This document shows, one piece after another, positions 11,376 to 33,061 of a stretch of DNA of 64,000 bases. The DNA lies in the NCBI GenBank assembly GCA_964603545.1, contig CAZRVD010000002.1, forward strand, positions 46,854 through 110,853. Direction: 5' to 3'. Position numbers and translations under genes: made by a program. How positions within the stretch are numbered: position 1 is the first letter of the stretch; every line of letters starts with the position of its first letter. Origin of the DNA: an uncultured Candidatus Saccharibacteria bacterium. Its GTDB lineage: Bacteria; Patescibacteriota; Minisyncoccia; Phycocordibacterales; DATDWN01. The notes beneath the pieces were generated by a model, which made no database searches, was not told where the DNA came from, and saw only the letters and a list, made by a program, of their open reading frames with translations.

Positions 11376-11380
11376 GAGAT

Positions 11381-11480
11381 ACGAAAATTATTCGAACATT
11401 ACGAATGGCTACGAATAATGCGTTTGGCTTTTTCCATTCGCAATCATTCGTTGATTTAAATTATTCGTATATTCGTATGT
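11381..11480. repeat. Array of TACGAA(T)/ATTCGTA heptamer repeats upstream of pilB; shares a 21-mer with the 19625-19760 array
   Basis: GATACGAAAATTATTCGAACATTACGAATGGCTACGAATAATG...CATTCGCAATCATTCGTTG...ATTCGTATATTCGTATG. The string ATTACGAATGGCTACGAATAAT recurs inverted at 19696-19717. Confidence 0.7.
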
Positions 11481-11540
11481 TTATCTTAATTATACCAAAA
11501 TTAAAATCTTATTTCACAAAAAATGTGTAAAAGATTATTA

Positions 11541-11569
11541 TTGACTAAATTTGTAAATTAGATTAGACT
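11541..11569 (+). promoter_or_regulatory. Sigma70-like promoter (TTGACT-17-TAGACT) driving the downstream structured RNA
   Basis: -35 TTGACT at 11541-11546, a 17-bp spacer, then -10 TAGACT at 11564-11569. Confidence 0.45.
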
Positions 11570-11576
11570 CATTTAT

Positions 11577-11878
11577 GAAACAGTTCTTGGTTCGCCGGCG
11601 ATGGGTCTGCCAACTCAGGTGTGGTGGCTCACCCTGGCCACCGTGAGCGACTAACCGCTCAAAACAGGATCAAAATCTTGAACAGACCCATCGCTTTCCG
11701 CCCGCAAGTTTCAAGCGGGTGGGTCCGACCGGTTCATGGTTTCCAGATCTATGGGTAAAAGTCCGGGTCGACATTGTGTCGTCGCCCCGGCTTTTCGTTT
11801 ATTTGACAAAAAGATTGCTTGGGTGTATTATGGTGTTATTGAAGTTCGCCCACCAGGGCGGGCTCGTTTTTTTACCGG
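11577..11878 (+). ncRNA. Structured GC-rich RNA with own promoter and intrinsic terminator; candidate nusA leader/attenuator or unassigned ncRNA
   Basis: ~300 nt markedly GC-rich. Long-range complement GATGGGTCTG (11601-10) / CAGACCCATC (11682-91). Hairpins CCCGC-AAGTTTCAA-GCGGG and GGTGGC-TCACCCTG-GCCACC with an alternative GCTCAC/GTGAGC pairing. It ends in the terminator GCCCACCAGGGCGGGCTCGTTTTTTT. Only random-looking ORFs overlap it. Confidence 0.4.
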
Positions 11879-11953
11879 AGGTAAAAAAACAATTAAACAG
11901 CTTTACCTAAGCCCTGTTTAGGTAGAAATAAATTAAAATTAAATATAACTAAT

Positions 11954-13105
11954 ATGATTGATTTAAAAGTGGTCAGTTCAGTACTAGCCCAATTAGAAGA
12001 AGAACGAGGAATACCTAAGGAGAAAATTCTTGAGGCTATTGAACTTGCCCTAGCTACTGCGTACAAAAAAGAGTACGGTAAAAAAGGGCAAATAATCCGA
12101 GCGAAATTCGATGTGAATTCTGGAAAAACTGAAATGTTTCAGGTTAAAAAGGTAGTGGATGACACTACTGTTGTTATGGACGAAGACGACCTTCCTGAAT
12201 TTGATCCTTTGACAGCAGAGACAGAAGCTACGATCGAACTGTACAACCCTGAACATCATATAATGATAGACAATGCTAGAAAGATAAAGAAAAACGTGGC
12301 TCTAGGAGAAGAAATGATTTTTCCTCTTGAAGCTCAAGACGACTACAGTAGAATTGCCGCTCAAACAGCTAAGCAGGTCATTATGCAGAAAATCCGCGAA
12401 GCGGAGAAAGTCTCTATTATGTCTCAATACGGACAACGTGAGGGAGAAATAGTCACTGGTACAGTACAAAGAATAGAGAGAGGAAATATATTTATAGACA
12501 TGGGACGAGCTACAGGACTTTTGCCTTATGAAGAGCAAATCCCTGGAGAGAGGTTCGGTCAAGGAGAAAGGGTTCGAGCATACCTATATAGAGTAGAAGA
12601 GTCTGGGAAGGGCGTATTCCTGCGACTTTCTCGCTCACATCCAAAGTTTCTAGAAAAACTTTTTGAAGCAGAGGCACCAGAAATAGCAAACGGCACTGTA
12701 ATAGTAAAATCTGTTGCCAGAGAAGCAGGATCACGAACAAAAATCGCGGTTAGTTCTGTTGATTCACACATAGACCCTGTAGGTTCTATGGTTGGCCAGC
12801 GTGGTGTTCGTGTTTCAACTGTTATGTCTGAACTCGGTGGAGAGAAAATAGATATTATAGAATGGAACGAAGACCCAAAGAAATTTATTGAAGACGCACT
12901 TTCCCCTGCTAAAACATTGGAAGTAAAAGTGAACGAAGCAGAAAAACAAGCGACAGTTACAGTATCTGAAGACCAACAGTCACTAGCCATTGGTAAGGGA
13001 GGACAAAATGTTCGCCTAGCTGCAAAACTAACTGGTTGGAAAATAGACATCCAATCTGCACAAAAAGATGAGTCAGCAACATCTGAGGAAGTTTCTGCTG
13101 AATAA
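11954..13105 (+). CDS. nusA: Transcription termination/antitermination factor NusA
   Basis: 383 aa. NusA N-terminal domain (EALELALATAYKK), S1 domain and KH domains. Confidence 0.95.
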   Translation: MIDLKVVSSVLAQLEEERGIPKEKILEAIELALATAYKKEYGKKGQIIRAKFDVNSGKTEMFQVKKVVDDTTVVMDEDDLPEFDPLTAETEATIELYNPEHHIMIDNARKIKKNVALGEEMIFPLEAQDDYSRIAAQTAKQVIMQKIREAEKVSIMSQYGQREGEIVTGTVQRIERGNIFIDMGRATGLLPYEEQIPGERFGQGERVRAYLYRVEESGKGVFLRLSRSHPKFLEKLFEAEAPEIANGTVIVKSVAREAGSRTKIAVSSVDSHIDPVGSMVGQRGVRVSTVMSELGGEKIDIIEWNEDPKKFIEDALSPAKTLEVKVNEAEKQATVTVSEDQQSLAIGKGGQNVRLAAKLTGWKIDIQSAQKDESATSEEVSAE

Positions 13106-16963: not shown

Positions 16964-17010
16964 AAAAATAATTATATATTAAAACGATGGGGATGGCTTG
17001 TGGCCATCCC

Positions 17011-17247
17011 CTAGTCTTCTTCGTGCTTGTGATGTTGTCCACCGTGTGTTCTACCAACCGTTCTGTGTTCACCATTTCCCTCTGGTGTCCAGTGACTTCG
17101 ACACTGACCACTCATATTAGAATCCGAAAGCTTTCTCCCGCAAATAGTACAATGGGTTAGCCGAGGAGCTCCTTCTGGAGGCCTGGGCATTTCGGTTTCT
17201 CTTGGTTTACGCATGAACCCATCCTCCAGAATTACTCTATAAAACAT
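17011..17247 (-). CDS. Possible small Cys-containing (zinc-ribbon-like) protein
   Basis: 78-aa ORF with HCTICGRK...GQCRSH. Its GC is somewhat elevated. A hairpin GGGGATGGC-TTGT-GGCCATCCCC (16990-17012) follows its stop. Low confidence. Confidence 0.3.
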   Translation of the reverse strand: MFYRVILEDGFMRKPRETEMPRPPEGAPRLTHCTICGRKLSDSNMSGQCRSHWTPEGNGEHRTVGRTHGGQHHKHEED

Positions 17248-17311
17248 AGATAATTAAGTCAATCTAAGAAGGTAGATTTACAAAAAGGCACTTTCTGGTA
17301 TACTCTAGCTC

Positions 17312-32681: not shown

Positions 32682-32704
32682 AAATTCCAAATTTTAATAT
32701 AAAA

Positions 32705-32763
32705 AACCGCCCAATGATCAAGGTCCATGGGGGAGTGTCATGGGCACTAATCATTGAGCGGTT
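32705..32763 (+). terminator. Long interrupted hairpin after cca (possible terminator or structured RNA)
   Basis: AACCGC-CCAATGATC-AAG-GTCCATG-[GGGGAGTGT]-CATGGGC-AC-TAATCATTG-A-GCGGTT, then TTGG. Further hairpins GGGAGTCGGCCGACTCCC (32888-32905) and GTCCTTTA-TAAGATACTG-TAAAGGAC (32993-33018). Confidence 0.4.
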
Positions 32764-33061
32764 TGGAGAGAAGACCCACACAGCATCCGTGAAGCTAGAT
32801 GTTGTAACTGAACTCCAAAAATATAAGTAGATAGCGAGGGTTCGTTTACACCTATTTCTTGATAAGAAACCAAGTGGTCTTCTGAGGGGAGTCGGCCGAC
32901 TCCCAAAATGGGTCGCACGACGAAGAACAAATTGCAAATGTCGTGTTCAGGGTTTATTGGACACTCTAATTGCGGTTCCTTAATTAGTGTATGTCCTTTA
33001 TAAGATACTGTAAAGGACATAAGCCAGAAAATTGTGGATAACTTAGATTAAGTTTCGATTT

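Follow-up and report, generated by a model that had tools for sequence, protein, structure and literature searches.

Non-coding DNA is scarce in the tiny genomes of bacteria of the candidate phyla radiation (CPR), Parcubacteria included, and to our knowledge hardly anything is known of the regulatory RNAs of these bacteria. Upstream of nusA, the closest described element is the rimP-leader, an attenuator that precedes rimP-nusA-infB and for which NusA has been proposed as the effector (PMC2965389). It has been described as the most widespread attenuator, with a stem that is conserved in sequence and without an antiterminator (Naville and Gautheret, 2010; PMC2965389). Here we analyse the region upstream of nusA in a 64-kb stretch of contig CAZRVD010000002.1 (‘the window’, whose numbering is used for all coordinates). 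An earlier note, made from the letters of this stretch, had read positions 11541–11878 as a single structured RNA of about 300 nt with its own promoter and terminator, which might be either a leader or attenuator of nusA or an independent non-coding RNA outside the known families. Our comparisons make it reasonably likely that the interval holds two separate transcription units, a small-RNA gene and the promoter and leader of nusA. The small RNA, on the evidence of the sequences compared, is a well-supported new structured RNA family, which is absent from Rfam 15 and has a narrow known distribution.

Two candidate transcription units between pilB and nusA

The comparison was based on 80 genomic loci encoding NusA proteins 69–89% identical to that of the window, to which further loci were added by exact-protein look-ups of closer NusA relatives. 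The sample consists of 9–21-kb neighbourhoods of nusA (L-numbers denote the nusA loci fetched from relatives) and comes from metagenome-assembled genomes of the Zambryskibacteria/Paceibacteria type; the window NusA is itself identical to an NCBI protein named for Parcubacteria group bacterium Gr01-1014_46. When 11541–11880 was compared with the 80 loci by blastn, conservation was confined to 11791–11876, which contains a second promoter and a hairpin followed by seven U residues (U7). In the window, pilB and nusA are divergent and separated by a spacer of 578 nt. The closest relatives (L001, L002, L082 and L085–L088; NusA 88–92% identical) have spacers of 220–360 nt, which keep the promoter region on the pilB side, the nusA promoter and the leader, and are without the GC-rich block of ~260 nt. 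Because the block is absent from the closest relatives while the nusA promoter and leader are kept, we conclude that the GC-rich element is not part of the conserved nusA leader.

The presence of a second promoter and of a local terminator within the interval indicates that the first RNA would end at about 11797 and that the second unit would start at about 11838; with a separate nusA unit, the T7 terminator would belong to the nusA leader and not to the large RNA. Unit 1 (11541–11797, + strand) would then be a small-RNA gene, in which a sigma-70-like promoter drives a transcript of ~220 nt that ends at its own intrinsic-terminator-type hairpin, and unit 2 (11803–11874) would comprise the promoter and leader hairpin of nusA. 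The product of the first unit would act as a structured RNA, whether by working with a protein, by catalysis or by binding a ligand; within this two-unit model, we rate the chance that it acts in trans as about even.

The landmarks of the earlier note can be revisited with this arrangement in mind. The segment is indeed GC-rich in an AT-rich intergenic context (51–57% GC over 11550–11800, against 18–39% in the flanks), and it is the highest-GC tRNA-free intergenic stretch of the window. The TTGACT-17-TAGACT promoter is present, the long-range pairing GGCGATGGGTCTG/CAGACCCATCGCT is the 13-bp helix that we call P1, and the hairpins GGTGGC..GCCACC, TGAGCG..CGCTCA and CCGCCCGC..GCGGGTGG can all be found, although the label ‘GNRA-like’ does not suit CCCGC-AAGTTTCAA-GCGGG, whose loop is 9 nt long. 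The mutually exclusive pairing GCTCAC/GTGAGC is possible in the window sequence but has no counterpart in the homologues. What the idea of one ~300-nt RNA had overlooked is a better promoter, TTGACA-17-TATTAT, together with the local terminator at 11757–11795. The hairpin and T7 tract that were taken for the end of the RNA do exist, ~80 nt before the nusA ATG, but are part of the nusA leader. An attenuator-like terminator is therefore present, as had been proposed, but it is this separate short hairpin with U7 at 11843–11873; the same role is not supported for the GC-rich element, since nusA has its own promoter downstream of it, the nearest relatives are without it and its alternative pairing is not conserved. 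The other option in the note, an independent RNA of a family not yet described, has fared well: there is an own promoter and terminator in every carrier lineage, no Rfam match and strong covariation. The Rfam search that had been proposed as a check matched no family, and conservation as a protein-coding open reading frame (ORF), which had been named as evidence against an RNA, was not seen between lineages. We suggest looking for internal promoters and terminators in GC-rich islands beside genes in AT-rich genomes before such islands are taken for leaders.

A shared pseudoknotted fold in four lineages

Transcription of the small RNA would start near 11575–11577 (Table 1). The closing helix P1, formed by GGCGAUGGGUCUG/CAGACCCAUCGCU in the minimum free-energy (MFE) fold, encloses the hairpins H1 and H2 and the 5′ strands of P6 and P5, and hairpin H4 follows the 3′ strand of P1 and precedes those of P5/P6. 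Because the 5′ strands of P6 and P5 are inside the P1 loop and their 3′ strands outside it, the predicted fold is a pseudoknot. The GC-rich RNA is closed by a local terminator-type hairpin, AAAAGTCCGGG...CCCCGGCTTTT (also written AAAAGUCCGGG...CCCCGGCUUUU), which is followed by U's; the terminator scanner did not list it, its loop being longer than 8 nt and its U-tract interrupted. The + strand folds better than shuffled sequences (z = −5.15, with 0 of 200 shuffles as good; z = −3.44 for the − strand), and the + orientation is indicated by G–U pairs in every helix and by the direction of the promoter and terminator.

Table 1. Features of the pilB–nusA region in window coordinates; promoters, RNAs and helices are predictions.
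Feature	Position	Strand	Basis
Candidate promoter of the small RNA: −35 TTGACT (11541–11546), 17-nt spacer, −10 TAGACT (11564–11569)	11541–11569	+	9/12 consensus positions
Small RNA, ~220 nt: 5′ single-stranded leader, pseudoknotted core, terminator	11575–11797	+	Fold z-score, homologues, no Rfam match
P1, 13-bp closing helix: 11597–11609 with 11683–11695	11597–11695	+	MFE fold, covariation, RNAalifold
H1 hairpin, UGGUGGC-UCACCCUG-GCCACCG	11622–11643	+	Fold, covariation, RNAalifold
H2 hairpin, UGAGCG-ACUAAC-CGCUCA	11644–11661	+	Fold, covariation, RNAalifold
5′ strands of P6 (AGGAUC, 11666–11671) and P5 (AUCUUGAA, 11675–11682) with AAA loop between, in the P1 loop	11666–11682	+	Structural alignment
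H4 hairpin, CCGCCCGC-AAGUUUCAA-GCGGGUGG	11698–11722	+	Folds; hairpin in every lineage, length and sequence vary
3′ strands of P5 (UUCAUGGU, 11733–11740) and P6 (GAUCU-A-U, 11746–11752) with UUCCA between	11733–11752	+	Pairing with 11666–11682 in the alignment
Terminator-type hairpin of the small RNA, AAAAGUCCGGG...CCCCGGCUUUUCG	11757–11797	+	MFE fold; the stretch likened to RNase P P4 in the earlier note
nusA promoter, TTGACA-17-TATTAT	11803–11831	+	11/12 consensus; best promoter match of the region
nusA leader: conserved AUUGAAGUUCGCC, 9-bp hairpin (11843–11864), U7 (11867–11873)	11838–11873	+	Sole terminator call in the region
Second hairpin, U-tract and ACC with GGU and A-tract (UUUUUUUACC-GGA-GGUAAAAAAA)	11867–11889	+	Noticed in a spurious MIR2670 alignment
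pilB-type type IV pilus/T2SS ATPase gene, 585 aa	9618–11375	−	ORF; Pfam MshEN and T2SSE on the identical gene in L081
nusA, 383 aa	11954–13105	+	ORF; Pfam NusA_N, S1 and KH domains

Searches of the window and all loci with the element by blastn and nhmmer returned self-matches only. A covariance model built from the window sequence alone (P1, H1, H2 and H4) gave a single non-self match in 784 kb, in which P1, H1 and H2 were aligned helix for helix (18.7 bits, E = 0.02). The match was to L004 (NusA 88% identical), where exactly the same site is occupied by a different-looking GC-rich block of ~300 nt, which has a TTGACT promoter of its own as well as a strong terminator. Versions ~80% identical to that of L004 are found in L211 (Parcubacteria bacterium C7867-006) and L212, and a fourth lineage, L259/L260, again has a very divergent version. 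A family model of the four lineages (R2) scored 54–72 bits for all six loci and matched nothing else in 892 kb from 99 sources. In all known carriers, four lineages of one Zambryskibacteria-like clade of Parcubacteria, the element lies between pilB and the nusA promoter; it is missing at the pilB–nusA site in ~90 other related loci, including the nearest ones (NusA 88–92% identical).

The signals that bound the RNA recur despite its divergence. A TTGAC(T/A) −35 element with a TAnAnT-like −10 element is found 19–30 nt upstream of P1 in L004, L212 and L259, and a GC-rich hairpin with a U-rich tract, unrelated in sequence, occupies the terminator position in L004, L211 and L259. The L211 and L212 small-RNA loci are identical except for a deletion of ~17 nt in L211 (9597–9625, compared with L212 9594–9640), by which the TATACT −10 box is lost along with some of the 5′ leader; given the lost −10 box, this copy may be poorly expressed.

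The fold common to all four lineages consists of P1, H1, H2 and the P5–P6 stem (five helices), plus H4. P1 enclosing H1 and H2, with the pseudoknotted P6-AAA-P5, is how we define the family, and this arrangement is present in the window, L004, L211/L212 and L259/L260. The structural alignment was not recovered when MAFFT was applied to the raw 5′ domains, and the sequences were therefore aligned by hand, segment by segment and with N padding, every row being verified as an exact substring of its source. P1 varies from 10 to 13 bp, is paired in 100% of cells and has 9 of 13 pairs changed on both sides. H1 (seven pairs, 97% paired) has two pairs with compensatory changes and an invariant 5′ strand, UGGUG; H2, of 4–6 bp across lineages, has three among its six pairs (100% paired). 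The corresponding figures are four of nine pairs for P5 (89% paired) and three of six for P6 (100% paired), which is built around RAUC/GAUY and is separated from P5 by a conserved AAA / YYCCA-type internal loop. The P5 strands illustrate how far the sequence has been replaced: they are AUCUUGAA/UUCAUGGU in the window, AUCAAUGGU/ACCAUUGAU in L004, CAAUGAU/AUCAUUG in L211, and UUGCC/GGCAA plus AAC/GUU in L259.

Over the 41 pairs of the five helices, 96.8% of 188 cells are standard pairs, compared with 26–46% when the 3′ partners were slid by 1–3 columns as a control. The covariation check among the nusA-upstream regions of relatives, which the earlier note had recommended, found both partners changed in 21 of the 41 pairs, and none of 500 shuffles equalled the real alignment.

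On the structural alignment the RNA core is 44–52% identical between lineages (76% for L004 and L211), whereas in the 600 nt of pilB and of nusA that adjoin it the identity at the DNA level is 78–86%, and in the nusA promoter–leader 73–85%. The RNA identities were taken from the structural alignment; a global aligner with free end gaps gave inflated values on short pieces. Judged from these identities, the RNA turns over much faster than its surroundings, with its fold retained. The small RNA is an accessory gene, because the nearest relatives are without it. Its fast turnover and patchy presence would fit both vertical descent with repeated loss and rapid compensatory evolution, and exchange of a cassette at a variable spot.

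Wider searches added no members. An exact-pattern scan of metagenomes (TGGTG-N6-CC-N4-CACC-N20-35-RATCAAAAYC) gave 42 matches, all of them unrelated and mostly on the antisense strand of AAA+ ATPase genes; as the scan missed even the known members, the collection apparently does not contain them. In viral contigs the matches listed for ATCAAAATC-N50-80-TTTCCAGAT were due to chance, and the pattern H1 plus ATCAAAATC found nothing. The short motif TTTCCAGAT proved too common to serve as a family marker, occurring mostly within pilB-type genes, and a motif-anchored descriptor found the known members and weak chance matches only. Phage and plasmid collections gave no match, or chance matches (E ~0.9).

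The promoter and leader hairpin of nusA

The nusA promoter is kept in relatives with or without the small RNA. A comparable promoter ends 3–12 nt before the leader hairpin in 25 of 52 distinct contexts, and this spacing places the hairpin at the very 5′ end of the transcript. In the window, the nusA transcript would start at ~11838, and the hairpin with U7 would begin about 5–10 nt later. The leader sequence from ~11838 is AUUGAAGUUCGCCC-ACCA-GGGCGGGCU-CG-U7, in which six pairs of the 9-bp stem are G–C. At least 59 of 100 loci, with the small RNA or without it, have a leader hairpin of this type 42–392 nt before the nusA ATG, in 45 distinct sequences. The 5′ strand of its stem, AGUUCGCC, is highly conserved and the 3′ strand alternates between G–U and A–U partners; in L004 and L005 a C–G pair is swapped to G–C. 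The leader hairpin with U7 is probably a NusA-type transcription attenuator. Since hairpin-dependent termination is stimulated by NusA, the protein would act back on the leader hairpin of its own gene. The second hairpin of Table 1, which is found in 11 of the 52 distinct leader contexts, all of them from close relatives, would form in read-through transcripts.

A terminator hairpin and U-stretch 5′ of the nusA operon, conserved across species, is the feature by which the rimP-leader (RF01770) is recognized, and 11838–11873 shows it. As in the rimP-leader, the short hairpin and U-stretch immediately precede the nusA operon, the stem keeps its sequence as well as its pairing, and no antiterminator is visible; the element is widespread in the clade, being present in the 59 of 100 loci mentioned above, and NusA is the obvious candidate for the effector. 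The two differ in that there is no rimP here, nusA being the first gene, and in that the hairpin lies ~5 nt after the presumed start. The stem, 5′ GUUCGCC(C)...(G)GGCGGGC 3′ (i.e. GUUCGCCC/GGGCGGGC), also departs from the GGGc...gCCC signature, and RF01770 gave no match to 11400–12000 at E ≤ 10. With a different stem signature and no match to RF01770, the nusA leader is, we conclude, not the same motif as the rimP-leader. If it is an attenuator, it would extend NusA autoregulation by attenuation to a phylum-level group in which it had not been described, and with a stem signature other than that of rimP.

Several additional inserts were seen in and near this spacer. At the small-RNA site, L083 (9375–9490) has a hairpin-like insert of ~110 nt (TTTTTCAGAC...GTCTGAAAAA), duplicated around a scaffold gap of Ns and without a match to the small-RNA family model; with this insert, the site looks like a hot spot for small inserts. 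L005 (3402–3854) has at the same site a GC-rich ORF of 150 codons (50–68% GC), which has no Pfam match and is followed by its own terminator hairpin. Between the leader hairpin and the nusA ATG, an element of ~125 nt resembling a miniature inverted-repeat transposable element (MITE), with terminal inverted repeats GAGCTTTCACAATTTC...GAAATTTGGAAGCTC, is found in L004 (3845–3985), L259 (2860–2990), L257 (75–205) and L262 (1395–1525). It is missing in L260, whose NusA is identical to that of L259, which points to a recent insertion/deletion polymorphism. A different structured insert of ~130 nt follows the leader hairpin in L002 (2925–3075) and L083 (9825–9975) and is closed by a 15-bp stem (GACCCCTCAGATTTG...CAAATCTGAGGGGTC in L002), with one compensatory change in L083. 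About 2 kb downstream of nusA, L257 (3657–4404) and L262 (4974–5951) carry a reverse-transcriptase gene (Pfam RVT_1, 325 aa), which the window does not have at the corresponding place.

In the window, just upstream of the pilB start codon, 11379–11478 form a nested imperfect palindrome of ~100 nt made of TACGAA/TTCGTA units (for example ATACGAAAAT...ATATTCGTAT and TACGAATAAT...ATTATTCGTA). It is missing from the shorter spacers of close relatives and could be an operator array or another small insertion. Elsewhere in the window, which has 37% GC overall, two other intergenic regions contain 100-nt stretches above 50% GC (16964–17311 and 32682–33061); neither has an Rfam family at threshold.

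Family identity and comparison with known systems

A search of the whole window with Rfam 15 at the gathering score placed no family in the element region. At E ≤ 10, 11400–12000 gave chance matches only (a mitochondrial LSU model on AT-rich DNA, P31 on the terminator, AfaR and MIR2670), and so did the L004, L211 and L259 homologues searched at E ≤ 10 with relaxed filters. ARAGORN found no tRNA or tmRNA at the element and four tRNAs elsewhere in the window.

Individual classes were considered in turn. RNase P RNA (RF00010, RF00011) has no match in the window at the gathering score or in 11400–12000 at E ≤ 10, nor in L004, L259 or L211. The earlier note had pointed to a P4-like stretch and had dismissed it, rightly in our view: AAAGTCCGGG makes up one side of a local hairpin, at whose place the homologues have unrelated terminator sequences. 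The strands AAAGUCCGGG (10 nt) and its complement CCCGGCUU, which equal the consensus strands of bacterial RNase P helix P4, are 17 nt apart and form a local 3′-terminal hairpin followed by U's, not a long-range helix; unrelated hairpins replace them in the homologues. A tmRNA was found neither by ARAGORN nor by Rfam. For SRP RNA there is no Rfam match in any lineage and, by eye, no GNRA-capped helix with conserved loops, and for 6S RNA (RF00013) there is no Rfam match and the conserved fold, a multi-branch pseudoknot, is unlike the rod of that RNA. Short resemblances to 5S rRNA (GCCAACUCAG) and to a T-box (GGGUGGGUCCG) are not conserved in homologues and have no Rfam match. A riboswitch would have a conserved exchange between terminator and antiterminator, and GCUCAC/GUGAGC is limited to the window sequence. 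The group I intron model (RF00028) has no match in any lineage, the empty sites join promoter-region DNA and not a gene, and H1 is a plain 7-bp hairpin.

The element might instead be a non-functional insertion at a variable site, either a decaying piece of GC-rich DNA from elsewhere or a miniature mobile element, its hairpins being incidental. Its presence is patchy among close relatives, its sequence is very divergent between lineages, and other inserts do occur at the spacer in other genomes (L083, L005 and the MITE-like elements downstream of the leader). However, the divergence is not random: five helices stay in register, with the compensatory changes and pairing described above, and each of the four lineages retains a promoter and a terminator. 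Terminal inverted repeats are lacking, there is no other copy in the window or in ~0.9 Mb of related loci, and no match to phages or plasmids. We regard an insertion of this kind as unlikely. Apparent repeats flanking the cassette, inspected as a possible target-site duplication, coincide with the two −35 regions. A role of the whole GC-rich element as a cis-acting leader of nusA, a riboswitch or attenuator in which alternative pairings decide on read-through, seems to us quite unlikely. It is true that the element is always directly upstream of nusA and on the same strand, that the imperfect U-tracts of its terminators make read-through conceivable, that GCUCAC/GUGAGC can replace H1 and H2 in the window sequence, and that attenuators upstream of the nusA operon are known (PMC2965389). 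But a near-consensus nusA promoter, conserved with or without the element, separates the element terminator from the gene, ~90 related loci do without the element (including those with NusA 88–92% identical), the alternative pairing is not conserved and no riboswitch family matches. Moreover, L004/L211 and L259 have one or two extra hairpins between core and terminator, so that there is no conserved overlap of the two as in riboswitches.

We consider it very improbable that the element belongs, in divergent or reduced form and unrecognized by the Rfam models, to a known class (RNase P, 6S, SRP, tmRNA or a group-I-like ribozyme). CPR genomes are divergent and models may fail; AAAGUCCGGG/CCCGGCUU match both strands of the RNase P P4 consensus. 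The core of group I introns has the order P3 - P4/5 - P6 - P7 - P3′ - P8 - P7′, and that of the element (P1, two hairpins, the 5′ strands of P5/P6, the 3′ strand of P1, a hairpin, the 3′ strands of P5/P6) is the same; a AGAUCUAG-type motif after the last hairpin resembles the group I ‘S’ element, AAGAUAUAGUCC. Against this, none of the four lineages matches at E ≤ 10 with relaxed filters and ARAGORN reports no tmRNA. The P4-like strands are a local 3′ hairpin with a 17-nt loop to which the homologues have nothing related, there are no exons and no host gene, and H1 is without the P4/J4-5/P5 organization. The core of ~165–180 nt is far below the size of RNase P RNA or tmRNA, and a housekeeping RNA would be expected in the nearest relatives, while the element is missing at the nusA site, the part of the genomes that was searched, in ~90 loci. 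That the element encodes a small protein is barely credible. Short frames are present, such as a 23-codon ATG frame at 11575, which coincides with the presumed transcript start, so that the mRNA could be leaderless, and a 45-codon GTG frame at 11621–11758. Yet comparison of the window, L004/L211 and L259 in six frames found no stop-free segment conserved among them; stop-free similarity is seen only between the ~80%-identical L004 and L211, in all frames. The L004 frame that matches the ATG at 11575 stops after eight codons, and the substitutions follow compensatory base pairing and are not codon-like.

Some observations also weigh against the interpretation that we favour, a small-RNA gene of a new family beside a separate nusA unit with an attenuator. 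The small-RNA promoter is only a 9/12 consensus match, and in the terminator, which the scanner did not call, the U-tract is interrupted (UUUUCGUUU). Since the alignment was made by hand to fit the proposed structure, its pair counts are biased towards that structure; it contains four lineages and five distinct sequences, the cells of which are not independent events. A generic pseudoknot descriptor matches 75 of 80 upstream regions, chance pairings being common in AT-rich DNA; the case therefore rests on positional homology and on the long GC-rich helices. The search for more members was limited to an exact-pattern metagenome scan and to nusA neighbourhoods. All known copies adjoin nusA, and a cis-acting or NusA-linked role is possible. 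For the leader, so strong a hairpin with U7, only ~35 nt from the start of the nusA transcript, ought on the face of it to stop most transcription, and no antitermination mechanism was identified. Independently of the hand alignment, the model built from the window sequence alone matched L004, RNAalifold recovers P1, H1 and H2, and single-sequence folds made without an alignment give P1/H1/H2 for the window, L004 and L212, and P5/P6 for L259 and in the L004 centroid. The elements of all four lineages fold better than shuffles (z −3.5 to −6.2).

A stand-alone RNA gene of ~220 nt in which a pseudoknot is kept while the sequence is almost wholly rewritten would be a rare candidate for a new structured RNA class in CPR bacteria. 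The patchy distribution at a single locus and the fast turnover raise the question of what is selected, whether interaction with a protein partner, catalysis or a role in a conflict system. It would be a long shot to propose that the core of ~170 nt represents a new class of stand-alone RNA, catalytic or ligand-binding, with a group-I-like helix order, which ultra-small CPR bacteria carry beside nusA, at a variable spot, as a fast-evolving accessory cassette with its own promoter and terminator, and which is perhaps under diversifying selection through phage conflict or host interaction.

The arrangement can be compared with several known systems. In the metY-rimP-nusA-infB arrangement of E. 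coli, a stable-RNA gene with its own promoter also lies immediately upstream on the same strand, with terminators before nusA. The metY product, however, is a tRNA and is co-transcribed with the operon, whereas the small RNA described here is no tRNA, nusA has a conserved promoter of its own beyond the RNA terminator, and the RNA is dispensable in close relatives. With the core of group I introns the element shares its succession of parts: one helix that closes the fold, two arms that are hairpins, then another long-range helix, with its 5′ strand next to the 3′ strand of the first helix, a hairpin and the returning 3′ strand. It differs in having no host gene, splice sites, P4/J4-5/P5 or identifiable G-binding site, in the greater length of its helices relative to P3 and P7, and in its own promoter and terminator. 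From RNase P RNA it is set apart by its size of ~220 nt and by the lack of the CR-II and CR-III regions. A further likeness is to orphan non-coding RNAs such as the raiA motif RNA and the candidates of Breaker and Weinberg, which are stand-alone units of ~200 nt with several helices including a pseudoknot, supported by covariation, of no known function and detectable as GC-rich islands in AT-rich genomes. The element resembles them in all these respects, but it matches none of those in Rfam 15, is found in four lineages at one locus and turns over unusually fast relative to its flanks.

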